A stretch of DNA of 64,000 nt from Minisyncoccia bacterium. Its GTDB lineage: Bacteria; Patescibacteriota; Minisyncoccia; Phycocordibacterales; UBA5272. Positions 23,262 through 44,376 of this stretch are shown piece after piece. Where the stretch lies: NCBI GenBank assembly GCA_038256975.1, contig JBBSJU010000003.1, positions 4,807-68,806 on the forward strand, in the 5' to 3' direction. The position numbers and the translations under genes are program-made. Each line of letters opens with the position of its first letter. The first letter of the stretch is position 1. The notes under the pieces are model-generated. The model was not told where the DNA came from. It saw only the letters and a program-made list of their open reading frames with translations, and did no database searches.

Positions 23262-23270
23262 AACGTTAGA

Positions 23271-23297
23271 AAAAGCCAACTGCTTGGCTTTTTTAGT
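23271..23297. terminator. bidirectional rho-independent terminator
   Basis: agccaa-ctgc-ttggct stem flanked by aaaa and tttttt. Sits between the tRNA-Ala 3' end and the 3' end of the minus-strand coiled-coil gene. Confidence 0.6.
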
Positions 23298-41007: not shown

Positions 41008-41086
41008 CCATATATCCTAACACAGAATGAAGAGAGGTATTGAAAAATATACACAAAACAGGTACAGTTTGAAACGTATCCACATC

Positions 41087-41158
41087 GGCCCTATCGTCTA
41101 GTGGTTAGGACAGCGGGTTCTCAATCCGTCAACCGGAGTTCGACTCTCCGTAGGGTCA
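41087..41158 (+). tRNA. tRNA-Glu (anticodon CTC), CCA not encoded
   Basis: Acceptor ggcccta/tagggtc. D-arm tcgtctagtggttaggaca, typical of Glu/Gln tRNAs. Anticodon loop ttCTCaa. T-arm cggag-ttcgact-ctccg. Discriminator A. Confidence 0.85.
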
Positions 41159-41171
41159 CACGTACAAAAAA

Positions 41172-41195
41172 CGCTGCGCAGGCAGCTATTTTTGT
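41172..41195 (+). terminator. short hairpin + T-run downstream of tRNA-Glu
   Basis: gctgc-gcag-gcagc followed by tatttttgtt. Confidence 0.35.
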
Positions 41196-41196
41196 T

Positions 41197-41244
41197 GTGT
41201 GACCCTAAGCAAGCAAACTGCTTTGCTTGCGTCGGAGAGTCGAA
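41197..41244 (-). repeat. inverted partial copy of the tRNA-Glu 3' end (T-loop through acceptor 3' strand, 22 nt) split by a 25-nt hairpin insert
   Basis: The reverse complement of 41197..41244 is ttcgactctccg + acgcaagcaaagcagtttgcttgct + tagggtcaca. The tRNA 3' end at 41139..41160 is ttcgactctccgtagggtcaca. Confidence 0.6.
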
Positions 41245-41355
41245 AAGCTTTTCCATGTTTTGAGAATCTTTGATACGATAAAACAGGAAAAGGTGTACTG
41301 CGACTGTAGGTCGAGACTCTCGTTTAATCACCATCAACAGCTAGCACCAGTAGCG

Positions 41356-41388
41356 TACAAAAACCTCCTATTTGGAGGTTTTTGTACT
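41356..41388. repeat. perfect 14-bp-stem palindrome gtacaaaaacctcc-tattt-ggaggtttttgtac upstream of gene A
   Basis: Direct inspection. Could act as a bidirectional terminator or operator. Confidence 0.55.
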
Positions 41389-41392
41389 TGTG

Positions 41393-41424
41393 AAAAAAAA
41401 TTGAAAAAGTTATATAATCTTTTT
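41393..41424 (+). promoter_or_regulatory. AT-rich promoter-like region with TATAAT hexamer ending 8 nt before the ATG of gene A (near-leaderless)
   Basis: ttgaaaaagttatataatctttttATG. A -35-like ttgtga/ttgaaa lies upstream. Confidence 0.3.
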
Positions 41425-42318
41425 ATGAAAACCATGTTTACAGACAAATTTCCCGACGACATGAAATCTAACACGGAGCTCGAAGCAGTAAAAATTAAAT
41501 ACCCTAATTATGACGACTATTACGTTGCGAGCGGATCGATAAAAGAACGTAGAGAGAGGTTCGATGAAATGTATCAAATATATGCTCCATATGCGGATAG
41601 ACATTTTCTATCAGATCTCAAAAAGCAATTTCATCAACGAACGTGGGAGATGTATATTGGATATGTTCTTGTAAAAAACAGTGTTATTTTCACCTCGACC
41701 GACAAAGGCCCAGATTTTCTTATAGAAACTCCTGGCGGAAAGATTTGGATTGAAGCAGTTGCGTGTGGTCCAGGAGAAGGACCAGATCGAGTTCCTGCAA
41801 TGGTGTATGGTGGAGTAAGTAACGTCCCTCAGGAAGAAATGATCATACGTATAGTTAGTAGTCTTGATTCAAAGTATAAAAAATTTAAAAAATACCTAGC
41901 TGACGGTATTGTGTCTCCGGAAGATAAATTGATAATTGCCGTAAACGCAGGCGGATTTTCACACATTGTTGACGGAGATATGCCACTTATTTTAAAGGCA
42001 ATTTTTGCCATTGGCCACAAAACACTGTCATGGCCTATAAATTCTGATCATAGTGTTCCTGGAAAATCAGGTGTTTCGACCAGAAATTTTATCGAGAAAA
42101 GAAATGGGAGTAAGGTGCCGACAACTTTTTTTCTTGAAGAAGACCATAAAATAATCAGTGCCATAATGTATTGCAGTAAAAACATACTGAATCATGAAAA
42201 TCCCCCTGGGATAGATATTTCAGTTGTGAGAAACTACATCGCTACCAATTCACTCCCAGAAACTGAGTTTCCGTTTATGGATTATATTAGTACAAAAAAC
42301 GGAGAAATTCTAATATAG
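41425..42318 (+). CDS. hypothetical protein (islet gene A), possible PD-(D/E)xK-like nuclease fold
   Basis: 297 aa from ATG 41425 (MKTMFTDKF...). The track ORF starts at 41227 but would span the palindrome and tRNA fragment. GPDFLIETPGGKIWIEAVA is weakly reminiscent of a D...ExK motif. No confident family. Confidence 0.5.
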   Translation: MKTMFTDKFPDDMKSNTELEAVKIKYPNYDDYYVASGSIKERRERFDEMYQIYAPYADRHFLSDLKKQFHQRTWEMYIGYVLVKNSVIFTSTDKGPDFLIETPGGKIWIEAVACGPGEGPDRVPAMVYGGVSNVPQEEMIIRIVSSLDSKYKKFKKYLADGIVSPEDKLIIAVNAGGFSHIVDGDMPLILKAIFAIGHKTLSWPINSDHSVPGKSGVSTRNFIEKRNGSKVPTTFFLEEDHKIISAIMYCSKNILNHENPPGIDISVVRNYIATNSLPETEFPFMDYISTKNGEILI

Positions 42319-42322
42319 TACA

Positions 42323-43450
42323 TTATTGAGGTTGCTTATCTTTCAAAAAGTTTAATAGGCAGTGACGAACAAGCGATTCAAAGAAATGGGCGAATGGTAA
42401 TTTTTGCGAACCAGAAAATGATCTATTGTCGATAGTCATACCCATACTTGGATCGGTATCCCAAGTCCTAGCCTCTTTCATTCTTAGTGGCATACTCAAG
42501 TACATTGATTCGCCACTATGGAGATACGCAGATCTGGCACTATATATGGTTTTTAGTGTCGGAACTAAGGCATCTTTTCTTATTTTACAATGTTCGGCTC
42601 TAGATTTTCCGCCTTTAAAAAATCTTGTGCAATATTTTTTAATAAAGGAAACAAAACGTAACTTAGAATTCCTGACAGAAAAAATCTCCTTCAATTTATC
42701 CTGTTGTTCTTTTGACAAACTAGTGACATCCACGATTTCGTGTATTTCCCTTGCACTAAAAATATCCACTGAAGAATCCATATCTATATACTTACTTAAA
42801 ATTTCTACGGCCGAAACAAGTCGAATGAATACCATTTCGGTGTCTAGACTAACTTGTCTCAAGGATTGTAAATATTGAAATGATGCCCATAAGAAATCTT
42901 GATGGAACTCCGTGGGTAGAGATCTGATCTTGTCTAAAAATTCAACAAGCCCAACACTAAAACTACGGGTCTTGTCTGAAAAAATAGTCGGATGAATCCC
43001 ACCTTCTGTACGCCTGTATTTTAAATATCTTTCGGATCGATGTTTTTGTCCATTTGAAAAAATGGTACTAGTCGCAACGATATAAAATCTGCATTGAAAA
43101 TATAAAGAGAATAAAGATATAAATTCTTCTGCCACCCCCTCCTTAAAATAGTAACCGCTTTTGTGGACATCTAGGTAACGCGAGTCGTTCTGTTCTCCAT
43201 GTGTGGCAGACTTTATTCGGAGAAGATATTTATATAAACCATTTTCATCTTTTTCAAAAGTTAAAAATGAACATGAAATTAACCCTTTCTCGTAATCAAG
43301 CCCGCCGGTTATACGGCATTCAGTGGCAATTTCATATTCTTCAAAATACTGATCTTTCTTTTTTCTAAATTTAACACAGTCAATATGCCTGACCCAGGAC
43401 ATTCTATTGTCTAGTTTTCTTCTGACTATGGACATATCTAAATAGTACAC
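42323..43450 (-). CDS. hypothetical protein (islet gene B) with C-terminal Rx4H HEPN-like motif; candidate abortive-infection/defence RNase
   Basis: 375 aa. C-terminal TIYSARSAYLHSGE matches the R-x4-H HEPN motif. Convergent with gene A, stops 4 nt apart. Confidence 0.45.
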   Translation of the reverse strand: MYYLDMSIVRRKLDNRMSWVRHIDCVKFRKKKDQYFEEYEIATECRITGGLDYEKGLISCSFLTFEKDENGLYKYLLRIKSATHGEQNDSRYLDVHKSGYYFKEGVAEEFISLFSLYFQCRFYIVATSTIFSNGQKHRSERYLKYRRTEGGIHPTIFSDKTRSFSVGLVEFLDKIRSLPTEFHQDFLWASFQYLQSLRQVSLDTEMVFIRLVSAVEILSKYIDMDSSVDIFSAREIHEIVDVTSLSKEQQDKLKEIFSVRNSKLRFVSFIKKYCTRFFKGGKSRAEHCKIRKDALVPTLKTIYSARSAYLHSGESMYLSMPLRMKEARTWDTDPSMGMTIDNRSFSGSQKLPFAHFFESLVRHCLLNFLKDKQPQ

Positions 43451-43590: not shown

Positions 43591-44181
43591 CTAGCGCTTA
43601 CCCTTCTTGCCGCTGCCTGCACTCGCACCTTTACGAGCCTGGCATTCGCCATTCCTAGCAGCATGGTTCGCCCAGCGACGACTCTCGACACCGGCTGCTT
43701 TTGCACGGGCGGTTTTGCCCGTCGAGGCGCGTTGTTTCAGCTTGAGCCAGGCGGGAACGTCCATACTTCGCGGCAGAGACTTCGGCTGGAGGTCGTTGAA
43801 ATAAACCGACCAGCCATTTTTGTTCTCGAACGTACAGTTGACCAGCTCCTGTTCCGGACTACCGAAGAATCGGTAGGAGAACGCTCCGGGTTGCAAAAGC
43901 ATATTTTCGATGCCGGCAGCGGCAACCATCTTACTTGCTTTCGCGAGCAGCCAGGTTGCCCCGATTGCCCGGATGTCGGAGACCTTGAGGAGAAAAGCGT
44001 TCCCCTTGCCGGTAAACTCACGACCCGTGTCGTGAGCAAAAGTTGCGTTCACGAGGAATGACCCTGATGACTGAATGATTCCCCGATCATTCAGTCGCAC
44101 CAGAGTCATTCGAGGATCGTTGACCAGATCATCGAATGAGATCCATGTGCTATGCTTTGTCACAACGTTCATGTTGTTCAT
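43591..44181 (-). CDS. hypothetical protein (islet gene C), 54% GC, with Lys/Arg/Ala-rich basic C-terminal tail
   Basis: Start at ATG 44181, preceded by strong SD AGGAGA with a 5-nt spacer (MNNMNVVTKH...). The track ORF extends to 44220. GC is ~17 points above the genome background. The C-terminal 45 aa are highly basic (KQRASTGKTARAKAAG...KGASAGSGKKGKR). Confidence 0.5.
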   Translation of the reverse strand: MNNMNVVTKHSTWISFDDLVNDPRMTLVRLNDRGIIQSSGSFLVNATFAHDTGREFTGKGNAFLLKVSDIRAIGATWLLAKASKMVAAAGIENMLLQPGAFSYRFFGSPEQELVNCTFENKNGWSVYFNDLQPKSLPRSMDVPAWLKLKQRASTGKTARAKAAGVESRRWANHAARNGECQARKGASAGSGKKGKR

Positions 44182-44376
44182 GGTTGTCTCCTGATAGCTC
44201 CATCGAACCCTTATCCCCATGAAGGAAAGGTGGAGGGGTCCTTGACCCAGATTGGAAGTTTAGTCCGACCGTTCGAAAGTCTTTATGGACAAACTTGGGA
44301 AATATTTCCCGAAAAATATCTAAATAATTAGTTTTTAGGTTCTTTTCAGGAAACATTTCCTTTCAAAGATCAGGCT

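Follow-up and report, generated by a model that had tools for sequence, protein, structure and literature searches.

We hold, with about even confidence, that the module directly downstream of tRNA-Glu is a miniature, non-autonomous, site-specific insertion element and that the inverted copy of the tRNA 3' end is one strand of its central stem. Such modules apparently form an undescribed family of tiny, gene-less inserts behind tRNA genes in Patescibacteria; a full-text search of the literature found no description of them. In the window, by which we mean the whole 64-kb stretch of DNA that was analysed (64,000 nucleotides), the module is about 155 nt long, carries no cargo, starts right after C74 of the tRNA and ends at a decayed copy of the tRNA end. 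Sequence comparison across the family hints that base pairing may choose the insertion site.

The module downstream of tRNA-Glu

The tRNA-Glu gene is intact and is preceded by a promoter-like TTGAAA-17-TACAGT at 41040-41068. It does not encode CCA: its 3' end reads ...GGGTC-A73-C74, and ACG follows the junction, which was placed after C74 by family comparison. The locus is made up of the following features.

41087 to 41159, plus strand: tRNA-Glu(CUC), found by ARAGORN and by Infernal with the Rfam tRNA model (58.3 bits)
41139 to 41161, plus strand: core, the 5' strand of the long stem, perfectly complementary to both arms
41160 to 41196, plus strand: P1 hairpin, beginning at the insertion junction (inverted pair; RNA and DNA folds)
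41197 to 41207, plus strand: arm 1, GTGTGACCCTA, complementary to the acceptor 3' strand, A73, C74 and 2 nt more
41208 to 41232, plus strand: hp a, the 25-nt insert (covariation counts; independent RNAalifold prediction)
41233 to 41244, plus strand: arm 2, CGGAGAGTCGAA, complementary to the T-stem 3' strand and the whole T-loop (positions 54-65)
41245 to 41294, plus strand: hp b, a long bulged hairpin (41248-41292; folds and RNAalifold covarying pairs)
41295 to 41314, plus strand: linker GTACT and hp c (pair counts; comparison of the window with locus L001)
41315 to 41333, plus strand: decayed direct copy of tRNA positions 57-76 (identical to the intact sequence in 15 of 21 aligned columns)
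41334 to 41347, plus strand: native downstream flank, TCAACAGCTAGCAC, which directly follows the tRNA-Glu CCA in module-free relatives

The first-pass annotation had reported an inverted copy of the tRNA-Glu tail, interrupted by a self-complementary insert of 25 nt, and both were borne out by the repeat search; the insert-bearing inverted copy is not a chance match. Positions 54-74 of the tRNA (41139-41159, with 2 nt more) are exactly complementary to 41197-41207 and 41233-41244. The two arms correspond to two perfect inverted pairs, one of 12 nt between 41139-41150 and 41233-41244 (TTCGACTCTCCG/CGGAGAGTCGAA) and one of 11 nt between 41151-41161 and 41197-41207 (TAGGGTCACAC/GTGTGACCCTA). On the minus strand the insert at 41208-41232 reads ACGCAAGCAAAGCAGTTTGCTTGCT, as originally written, and occurs once in the window. 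With at most one mismatch allowed, the arms matched only the tRNA itself and the inverted copy in the 64 kb; two such matches were reached in 0 of 100 shuffles for the 12-mer versus 10 of 100 for the 11-mer.

The core comprises the T-loop (41139-45), the 3' strands of the T-stem (41146-50) and of the acceptor (41151-57), A73 and C74 (41159), and then 2 nt of the module. P1, with a GC stem (41173-41186) between A- and T-tracts, resembles a bidirectional intrinsic terminator, as predicted from the sequence; its letters change among relatives and its pairing is retained, with compensating changes in L016/L010. Arm 1 contains GACCCTA, the equivalent of the acceptor 5' strand, and is the less conserved arm family-wide (61.7% of cells paired with the distal copy). 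Arm 2 was matched in at least 11 of 12 positions in all family members scored. Between them lies hp a, a stem of 9 bp (41209-17 with 41222-30) closed by a CTGC loop; it exits exactly between the complements of T-stem and acceptor, at the point from which a real tRNA sends out its D and anticodon arms. The bulged hp b is bordered by conserved AAAAG(G/C)...(G/C)(G/C)TGTAC motifs, and its 3' half is identical in 44 of 44 positions between the window and L001. The last hairpin, hp c, has a stem of 4-5 bp (41300-04 with 41310-14) topped by a TGTAG loop, and adjoins the displaced copy of the tRNA end.

This displaced copy reads GACTCTC-GTTTAATCACCA and holds the original encoded CCA at 41331-33; by its sequence, 41315-41333 is the displaced original 3' end of the tRNA, an attR-type repeat. 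The first reading had noticed a looser tRNA-like fragment near 41309 and had remarked that integrase att scars are normally direct repeats. The fragment is real, and resolves into the 3' strand of hp c (41300-14) followed by the decayed direct copy; a direct-repeat scar of att type is present and had been half seen. Further downstream, sub-threshold Rfam matches to a terminator hairpin were obtained at 41355-41387.

Stability and covariation of the fold

RNA co-folding, proposed earlier as a check, gave a single predicted three-way junction made of the tRNA end, the terminator hairpin and the arms, with -81.4 kcal/mol and z = -8.7. With DNA parameters the same junction reached -45 kcal/mol and z = -12. 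Mean minimum free energies per 190 nt were -87 kcal/mol for modules versus -44 kcal/mol for module-free trailers. In the family alignment 84% of the helix cells were paired and 17 pairs had changed on both sides, a covariation score that was reached by 0 of 500 shuffles; RNAalifold found compensatory changes in 23 of 33 pairs. Pairing in hp a was retained in 98.7% of cells, with both sides changed in 7 of 9 pairs and zero wobble pairs. Covarying pairs of hp b extend from 55-131 to 69-119 in the RNAalifold model. For hp c, double changes were seen in 3 of 5 pairs, and its stem has fully covaried between the window (GCGAC/GTCGA) and L001 (AAAGC/GCTTC).

A family matched to different tRNAs

The same architecture was found after genes for tRNA-Glu(CUC/UUC), Val, Ser(CGA), Ser(ACU) and Cys, in Paceibacterota, Saccharibacteria and related MAGs. 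A scan of tRNA genes detected an inverted copy (at most one mismatch in 12) 48-83 nt downstream in 13 of 115 loci, and in 0 of 112 upstream controls. Seven different tRNA 3' cores, from six tRNA species, are each matched by their own arms with 0-1 mismatch. Matched arms occur in the tRNA-Cys module of L064 (GCGGGAATCGAA versus TTCGATTCCCGC), behind tRNA-Ser(ACU) in L038 and tRNA-Ser(CGA) in L036, and with three core variants behind tRNA-Val (L027, L039, L052, L044), among them a single-nucleotide covariation of C59/G versus A59/T.

The inverted copy covers precisely tRNA positions 54-74 in all family members. Type 1 members behind various tRNAs have it split between positions 65 and 66 by a covarying hairpin, and in some members the arms are contiguous. 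The constancy of this span and of the covarying hairpin speaks against the earlier suggestion that the copy is a remnant of an excision or inversion. In type 2 modules the arms are reduced to GTGA and CGGAG-like remnants, and long stems often take in the last 4-5 nt of the tRNA. Insert lengths range from about 155 to 215 nt, without an ORF. The core itself varies among the Glu, Val, Ser and Cys members, and the stems of P1 and hp c on either side of the shared segment vary freely. Several copies can occur in one genome: the Bin_53_2_2 MAG carries modules behind both of its tRNA-Glu genes (L016, L060), and in L027 and L039 both the Glu and the Val tRNA are followed by copies. Elsewhere the same module sits between a tRNA and ordinary housekeeping genes.

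Direct repeats, polymorphism and the proposed insertion

Across members the direct repeats measure 14-21 nt. Their right end is always C74, their left boundary varies from position 54 to 61, and the distal copy often retains CCA. Intact direct copies of 18-21 nt were found in L022, L041, L027, L064 and L036. The repeat of the window (41142-41159 versus 41315-41331) is decayed and the tRNA is regenerated. Decay of the distal copy is seen in the window, L016 and L060, where the arms are still perfect against the proximal tRNA; the copy in the window is an old one.

Comparison with relatives revealed both empty and occupied sites. L003/L004 and L059 have no module, and TTGACAGCTAGCAC or TTCAACAGCTAGCAC comes straight after the tRNA-CCA; the native-flank motif follows the distal copy in L001, L054, L056 and L035. 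At L001, where FecR is 89% identical, a different module type is joined to the 3' half of the window's module. At L010/L016 the FecR is only 58% identical and the window module is 94% identical (97.5% from the arms to hp c). Presence or type of the module differs between close relatives and is not fixed. The first-pass annotation had held that conservation of the arrangement at tRNA-Glu loci lacking any island would count against its proposals; modules indeed need no island, but they are polymorphic among close relatives. Contig breaks located exactly at C74 were also seen. The evidence of movement consists of these breaks and of differences between relatives; no excised circle and no empty/occupied pair within one population was found.

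Tandem arrays occur in L064, L052 (two identical units), L016, L027 and L039, and the unit nearest the tRNA looks the youngest. P1 extends into arm 1 with the proximal copy (GGGTCACAC/GTGTGACCC) and not with the distal one (GGGTCACCA), a continuity that is expected if core, P1 and arms travel together.

From this anatomy and polymorphism we infer a mode of mobility, a role for the pairing and a kind of enzyme. The element would have entered tRNA-Glu by recombination over a shared segment from the T-loop (about 57-61) to C74, and in the window the core from about G57 (41142) to C74 would have been supplied by the element. The functional tRNA would now end in element-supplied sequence, with loss of the encoded CCA, and the original 3' end, its CCA and the native flank would have been displaced about 170 nt downstream, where they decay. 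The attachment core would be kept inside a hairpin, paired with arms that complement positions 66-74 and 54-65, such that the folded single strand, DNA or RNA, may resemble a tRNA acceptor/T-stem minihelix. Since the members share a common scaffold, carry arms matched to their own tRNA and have junctions that are otherwise unconserved, the arm-core pairing probably sets or displays the site of recombination for a trans-acting enzyme, in place of a protein reading a fixed sequence.

A more specific version, in which the modules are the non-coding part of a programmable system and a pairing of about 21 nt to positions 54-74 picks the tRNA target, is a possibility that we entertain tentatively and consider improbable as it stands. 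The folded strand or a transcript would present a three-way junction like a minihelix, and a host or helper enzyme would carry out both cutting and joining after C74. Retargeting would need only new arms and a new core, which would have been achieved at least six times on one scaffold.

Several observations sit less well with the insertion element. Arm 1 is often imperfect and type 2 modules keep only remnants of the arms, so extensive pairing is not indispensable for persistence of a module. Replication template-switching at a strong hairpin, and not a function, could keep the arms perfect. Finally, the module has been conserved in place whereas the displaced copy is decaying, which suits a role in the integrated state no less well than a role in mobility.

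Search for an enzyme or cargo

Pfam searches of the ORFs on either side of the window module detected no recombinase, transposase, reverse transcriptase or cargo gene. The same holds for the neighbours of nine module-bearing loci, and the 25 most-matched families for 48 ORFs of the window included none of these. The DEDD recombinase families PF01548/PF02371 were absent from the flanking ORFs examined, and the neighbours examined held no Y1 transposase or TnpB. NCBIfam gave no match for the three ORFs downstream of the window module. By eye, no GTTRRRY box or dif-like sequence was seen in the module.

Rfam 15 at permissive thresholds returned, for the window, only the tRNA and sub-threshold hairpin matches and, for six relatives (type 1, type 2 and other types), only tRNAs and spurious miRNA-model hairpin matches. 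Viral contigs searched with arm, scaffold and hairpin patterns gave no evidence of a phage-borne module; the matches were one phage tRNA cluster (L013) and 20 chance matches to the arm pattern without module features. Two further candidates, L053 (Binataceae, a gapped genome match) and L065 (metagenome), were rejected as chance or hairpin-only matches that lack the features of the module.

Possible functions in the integrated state and other alternatives

An unlikely alternative is that the module encodes a stand-alone, tRNA-shaped structured non-coding RNA, in which the arms bind the distal tRNA-end copy within the same module. Such an RNA would have an acceptor-like stem of 7 bp, a lengthened T-like stem and ACCA at its 3' end, a structure from which RNase P, RNase Z and the CCA-adding enzyme could release a stable functional RNA of about 150 nt; its place behind tRNAs would reflect co-transcription and spread of an RNA gene. 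The fold between arm 2 and the distal copy is 91% paired, in agreement with RNAalifold, and in the window a reduced fold still forms with z = -3.1. The modules of L064 separate tRNA-Cys from tRNA-Leu on a single strand that has no terminator there, a layout from which co-transcription is expected, and hp b of L064 contains tandem G-A mismatches, an RNA-like motif. On average, folds of the tRNA-sense strand are 7-9 kcal/mol more stable than those of its antisense counterpart, which is a weak hint that the structured species may be RNA and not DNA; in this strand comparison the G-U counts (29 versus 19) and the mismatches in the arms gave no decisive answer. However, it is the distal copy that has decayed in the window, L016 and L060, where the arms remain perfect against the proximal tRNA, and several members have a terminator between tRNA and arms with no promoter-like site after it. 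Zero G-U pairs in hp a and hp c, over about 120 paired cells, is unusual for an RNA family, and no Rfam family was matched.

It is somewhat less probable still that the module acts in cis as a 3' trailer of the tRNA precursor, in which the arms would compete with the tRNA 5' strands for the 3' half of the molecule and tune folding, 3' maturation or turnover of tRNA-Glu, a gene without CCA. The perfect complementarity of the arms to the adjacent functional tRNA and the high stability of the combined fold agree with this, and as the module removes the encoded CCA, maturation must change. The first-pass annotation had likewise considered a processing or attenuation structure. Such a reading is weakened by the predicted bidirectional terminator (41173-41186), whose hairpin and T-run precede the arms in the window and in many relatives, and the tRNA would have folded before the arms are transcribed. 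Moreover, close relatives lack the module or carry another type, and the direct repeat, the tandem arrays and the extra scaffold hairpins are left unexplained.

We consider it very improbable that the arms are functionless products of intramolecular template switching seeded by the terminator hairpin (quasipalindrome correction), which would have copied the tRNA end as its reverse complement and would keep this copy perfect, in a module that is a decaying att remnant. P1 would be a perfect nucleus for fold-back synthesis, the arms are perfect where adjacent non-selected sequence decays, and stems that swallow the last nucleotides of the tRNA are common in type 2. Against this, synthesis would always have to stop at position 54, and the type 1 split between 65 and 66 recurs at different tRNAs in distant lineages; the downstream scaffold is conserved and covarying as well, a pattern that independent switches would not recreate.

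The least credible reading, and one that we would all but discard, is an integrase inversion or excision scar of a conventional island, or the inverted terminus of a larger tRNA-targeting element with the downstream ORFs as its cargo: the downstream region is a strain-variable, defence-like hotspot and an element with a large serine recombinase shares the C74 junction in L002 and L020/L054, but the gene-less module ends, with the displaced tRNA end and the native flank, ahead of the first ORF, the same module occurs elsewhere without variable genes nearby, no second tRNA-end copy was found elsewhere in the window, none bounding the downstream ORFs, and no integrase was found nearby with Pfam. 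Of the corresponding proposals made at first, the targeting of a tRNA 3' end stood, whereas the inverted termini did not: the arms are set about 37 nt in from the left junction, and by eye the ends are not inverted repeats in the window, L022, L041 or L064.

Implications

Should the insertion-element reading be true, Patescibacteria would carry a widespread, unnoticed class of tiny elements on tRNA 3' ends, which rewrite the last 14-18 nt of a tRNA and remove its encoded CCA. The acceptor 5' strand of at least one lineage seems to have undergone a compensating change after the insertion. Site specificity would appear to be written in base pairing rather than in protein, a compact addition to the insertion systems specified by nucleic acid, such as group II introns, CASTs, IS110 bridge RNAs and IS608 guides. 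A conservative reading, too, would account for frequent contig breaks at tRNA 3' ends in CPR assemblies and for many CCA-less CPR genes of tRNA-Glu, Val, Ser and Cys, and would have the module mark a defence-gene hotspot.

Comparison with known systems

Group I introns have been described at 35/36 in the anticodon loop, where they match Rfam (PMC13011429). Such an intron had been considered for the module on account of the IGS-like geometry of P1. In the window, RF00028, used to look for the catalytic core P3-P9, gave no match at E up to 10. The junction comes after a C-G and not a U-G pair, the terminal base is C and not G, and there is a direct repeat, so that a group I intron was rejected. 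A retrovirus-like primer-binding site was dismissed likewise, as the arm complements the genomic CAC after A73 and not a mature CCA end. A mere intrinsic terminator would leave out the arms, hp a, hp b and hp c, which lie beyond it and are conserved and covarying.

The modules share with tRNA-targeting elements and their integrase-less derivatives (CIMEs), tycheposon-type remnants included, the 3' insertion, the regenerated gene, the partial direct copy from the T-loop, the tandem accretion at a regenerated site and the strain-variable hotspot. They differ in that the members examined have no integrase or cargo, the flanks of the junction are unconserved and the right boundary is always C74; arms complementary to the target and a covarying scaffold are absent from ordinary attP arms. 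Of the hallmarks of a tyrosine-integrase island, the direct repeat was found, whereas integrase and cargo inside the repeats and conserved protein-binding core sites were not. Small size, lack of coding capacity and several copies per genome are as in a MITE. A MITE or casposon reading was nevertheless rejected, with about 15 nt at each end showing no inverted similarity by eye in the window, L022, L041 and L064, and a repeat that varies between 14 and 21 nt. Casposons, which depend on Cas1, reportedly target tRNA 3' ends, with about 14-15 bp of the gene being duplicated. The place of insertion is the same, but the modules show no terminal inverted repeats in the ends compared by eye and no Cas1 or polymerase, and a left boundary that moves from 54 to 61 misfits a fixed staggered cut.

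With the bridge RNA of IS110/IS621 and with group I/II introns (IGS, EBS1/2) the modules have in common the order guide, structured element, guide, a constant scaffold with variable guides, and insertion immediately 3' of the paired target. Unlike these, they show no DEDD recombinase, intron core, junction U-G pair or terminal G; both arms pair with one strand, and there is a direct repeat of 14-21 nt. For IS608 the site is said to be recognised by pairing to an internal guide, a change of which retargets the element. IS200/IS605 (IS608) and PATE resemble the modules as small non-coding hairpin derivatives with a pairing guide near the hairpin foot; here the T-loop TTC, the partner of the arm's GAA, falls outside the repeat in most members. 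The guide is 4 nt there and 21 nt here, a direct repeat is found only here, and the left and right hairpins are alike there, whereas P1/hp a and hp c are unlike each other.

Folded sites are reportedly used by integrons and by the CTX phage, whose prophage end is said to consist of a site, a short spacer and an inverted copy. As in integron attC and CTX attP(+) (XerCD), the core lies in the stem of an imperfect hairpin that is formed with a nearby inverted copy and contains a bulge or branch, and such elements can do without a recombinase of their own. The core of the module does lie in the bulged stem of an inverted repeat, with z = -12 for the DNA fold and seven covarying variants. The differences are that the target is a tRNA 3' end and not attI or dif, that the hairpin copies the target itself and changes with it, and that the bulge is a conserved hairpin of 25 nt. 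A further difference is the small size of the element, about 155-215 nt, with no cargo and no linked IntI or Xer. The closest analogues of the arm-core pairing are a folded attC or CTX-phage attP, or a guide sequence.

A structured module, probably an insertion, behind tRNA-Glu

Downstream of the tRNA-Glu(CUC) gene lie two blocks, arm 1 and arm 2, whose exact complement is the last 21 nt of the tRNA plus 2 nt beyond it; those 21 nt comprise the T-loop, T-stem 3' strand, acceptor 3' strand, A73 and C74. The 25 nt separating the arms fold into hp a, a hairpin of 9 bp closed by a CTGC loop, so that the inverted, hairpin-split tail copy reported by the first-pass annotation was described correctly. 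Neither arm has a further match with one mismatch or fewer within the 64-kb window. Co-folding of the tRNA end with the downstream stretch gave one three-way junction extending to the arms (z = −8.7 for RNA, −12 under DNA parameters). Between the tRNA and arm 1, the segment P1 contains a GC stem predicted as an intrinsic terminator in both directions. The features are, in window coordinates:

41087-41159, tRNA-Glu(CUC)
41173-41186, GC stem of P1
41197-41207, arm 1, complementary to the tRNA end
41233-41244, arm 2, complementary to the tRNA end
41248-41292, hp b, long bulged hairpin 3' of arm 2
41300-41314, hp c, small hairpin with a TGTAG loop
41315-41333, GACTCTC-GTTTAATCACCA, decayed direct copy of tRNA positions 57-76

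The displaced copy at 41315-41333 still shows a CCA, which the functional tRNA-Glu gene lacks, and is directly followed by TCAACAGCTAGCAC. Since in the relatives L003/L004 and L059 an intact tRNA-Glu ends in CCA and runs at once into this same native flank motif, 41160-41314 is best read as an insertion of about 155 nt after C74 (the module), by which the tRNA end was regenerated and the old end displaced.

A palindrome, (A/G)GCTAGCAC or GTGCTAGCAC with NAG(A/T)AG after it, is conserved 5-8 nt past the native tRNA-Glu CCA (window 41334-41350; L003, where it is present twice, L033, L035, L054, L056 and L059). Common to Paceibacterota and Saccharibacteria, it might bind a protein or serve for attachment, marking the start of the variable genes.

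Conserved pairing within the module

Covariation was assessed in an alignment of nine type 1 modules. Hp a was paired in 98.7% of cells, with both sides changed in 7/9 pairs; double changes were also found in 3/5 pairs of hp c and in 4/9 pairs of arm 2 with the repeat. None of 500 shuffles reached the observed covariation, and slid controls were about 35% paired. Hp a, hp b, hp c and the pairing of arm 2 with the repeat were also predicted independently by RNAalifold; compensation was seen in 23 of 33 pairs. Modules folded to −87 kcal/mol per 190 nt, whereas module-free trailers reached −44.

Arm 1 (GACCCTA) corresponds to the acceptor 5' strand, and the CGGAG that opens arm 2 to the T-stem 5' strand; hp a branches off at the point from which the D and anticodon arms would emerge. 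For these reasons the predicted fold is a mimic of a tRNA minihelix, its T-stem extended into the T-loop. No Rfam family matched the module in the window or in the six relatives searched. The hairpin GCCAACTGCTTGGC, identical to hp a of several modules, also occurs in the terminator behind the window tRNA-Ala (23270-23296, AAAAAGCCAACTGCTTGGCTTTTTT) and by itself in L065. Hp a could thus have arisen from a hairpin that is common in the lineage.

Related modules behind other tRNAs

A scan of one genome per species, using the tRNA 3' end as query with a gap allowed, retrieved 50 loci. The same architecture was found within 260 nt after tRNA-Glu in L022, L041, L056, L060, L054 and L027, with direct repeats perfect over 19-21 nt in L022, L041 and L027. 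An arm-free pattern search of metagenomes revealed a tRNA-Cys followed by two tandem modules. Arm 2 of these modules, GCGGGAATCGAA, is complementary to the T-loop and T-stem of tRNA-Cys, and their direct copies match the tRNA-Cys end. Among the other loci, modules also lay behind tRNA-Ser(ACU) (L038), tRNA-Ser(CGA) (L036) and tRNA-Val (L027, L039, L052, L044).

In an unbiased scan of every tRNA in all loci for an inverted copy of positions 54-65 with 0-1 mismatch, 13/115 tRNAs had such a copy 48-83 nt downstream; among upstream controls, 0/112 came closer than 2 mismatches. The arms match seven different core sequences (the tRNA segment from T-loop to C74), and C59 versus A59 in tRNA-Val is mirrored by G versus T in the arm. 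C74 ends the proximal junction and every still-readable distal repeat; the left end of the repeat varies from position 54 to 61, and CCA is often retained in the distal copy. Tandem arrays occur in L064, L016, L027, L039 and L052, the last with two identical units.

Behind tRNA-Glu, a type 2 module is commoner than type 1 (L001 4640-4830, minus strand; L016 170-300; L025, L028, L029, L032-L035, L038, L044, L049, L061, L062). Its order is a long P1 that absorbs the final GTCAC of the tRNA, GTGA-AGN-CGGAG, a small hairpin, GAGGCGGGGTCGCGA, another hairpin and TTGTGACC(ACA), in which a G-T pair is conserved. L005, L018 and L063 have a type 3 module (AGAGAGAGCTAGTTCGAGCACTCGA...), and there are type 1/type 2 hybrids in L027, L036, L039 and L052. 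Some second units have contiguous arms and lack hp a. Searches of IMG/VR viral contigs with arm, scaffold and hairpin patterns found no module copies. One 94-kb viral contig (L013, IMGVR_UViG_3300031576_000015) carries four or more tRNA genes in close succession, beginning with a tRNA-Glu whose T-arm and acceptor 3' end are as in the window and which has no module behind it.

Probable module turnover at the orthologous locus

In L001, whose FecR is 89% identical, tRNA-Glu is followed by a type 2 module and, adjoining it, the hp b 3' half (44/44 positions as in the window), a covaried hp c stem, the displaced copy and the native flank. The more distant L010/L016 (FecR 58% identical) have a window-type module at 94% identity (97.5% from the arms to hp c), then a displaced copy and a type 2 module. 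The module is absent in L003, L008 and L015, and L005 has another type. That the closer relative differs while the distant one shares the module argues that modules turn over and are not simply conserved by descent. Several contigs stop precisely at C74 (L011, L012 and L052) or 1-4 nt past it (L007, L019 and L048); strain variation starting at C74 would produce such breaks.

The L001 displaced copy (GACGACCGTAAGGTTACC) has TAAGG, like the tRNA of L002/L003 (acceptor GGCCTTA/TAAGGTC), whereas the functional tRNA-Glu of L001 and the window has TAGGG with the 5' strand GGCCCTA. This suggests that the acceptor 3' strand was exchanged on insertion and that a matching change in the 5' strand came later.

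Gene neighbourhood

Housekeeping genes flank the window module (FecR-like, CHASE2 cyclase, methyltransferase, YqeY, RmuC, Mur ligase, PBP); their homologues, and genome records with the same tRNA, belong to Paceibacterota, Parcubacteria, Minisyncoccia, Nomurabacteria and Saccharibacteria, which places the host in the Patescibacteria. Variable between strains and defence-like in content, the interval from tRNA-Glu to the Mur ligase gene forms a hotspot in the window, L001 and L005:

Window 41425-42318, + strand, ORF with a PADLOC PD-T7-1/PD-T7-5 match (E = 1e-14)
Window 42323-43450, − strand, ORF with no match in Pfam, NCBIfam or PADLOC
Window 43591-44220, − strand, ORF with no match in Pfam, NCBIfam or PADLOC
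L001 3124-4608, PtuA/GajA/AriA-like AAA_15 ATPase
L005 38-4732, HTH protein and type I restriction-modification genes

Ahead of these window ORFs lies another bidirectional terminator (41355-41387), whose 14 bp are perfectly paired and which has the frame GTACAAAAA...TTTTTGTAC in common with P1. A promoter-like site, GTGAAA-17-TATAAT (41390-41418), comes next. As its −10 element ends just 6 nt before the ATG at 41425, this ORF may be translated from a leaderless mRNA. No recombinase, transposase or reverse transcriptase was found in the flanking ORFs examined, either among the matches listed for the window or in nine module-bearing loci.

DALYDD010000004.1 (adjacent blocks L020 and L054) carries an element of some 9.6 kb that directly abuts C74 of tRNA-Glu(UUC) on one side and a type 1 module on the other (junctions ...GGGTCAC|AAACAGC and ...ATGGGGTCAC|ACGAGC), so that a second kind of mobile element uses the C74 junction. 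Its tRNA-proximal end is homologous to the tRNA-adjacent large serine recombinase gene of L002 (3190-4911).

Origin of the module

The finding is real and not random, and the module is more than a common terminator or a usual att scar. The direct repeat, regenerated gene, tandem arrays and polymorphism point to site-specific insertion like that of integrative elements, here by a unit without cargo or enzyme. P1 runs on into arm 1 only with the proximal copy (GGGTCACAC), not with the distal one (GGGTCACCA), as would be expected if P1, the arms and the proximal 3' segment came with the element and the distal copy were the displaced host end.

Two other readings keep real weight: an RNA gene resembling a tRNA, with the distal copy for its 3' end, and a cis-acting trailer of the tRNA precursor. 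Conservation of the module in place while the displaced copy decays, and the better folding of the sense than the antisense strand, would suit both, but the predicted terminator upstream of the arms and the lack of G-U pairs in the conserved hairpins speak against them. A by-product of template switching around a hairpin is a further rival. A random inversion scar can be set aside, because the inverted copy never extends beyond position 54; nor were inverted-repeat termini seen in the termini compared by eye.

Returning to site-specific insertion, the arms vary with the target tRNA while the sequences flanking the shared segment vary freely, from which we infer that arm-core base pairing specifies or presents the insertion site. 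The window module is an old copy of a widespread Patescibacterial tRNA-tail family with target-matched arms, which is apparently undescribed. Our literature search found nothing comparable; the nearest report describes group I introns at 35/36 in Patescibacteria tRNAs (PMC13011429). Arms of this kind are absent from ordinary att sites. A folded single strand might serve as the recombination site, a possible likeness to integron attC and CTX attP; alternatively, the arms might act as a guide, as in IS608 and mobile introns.
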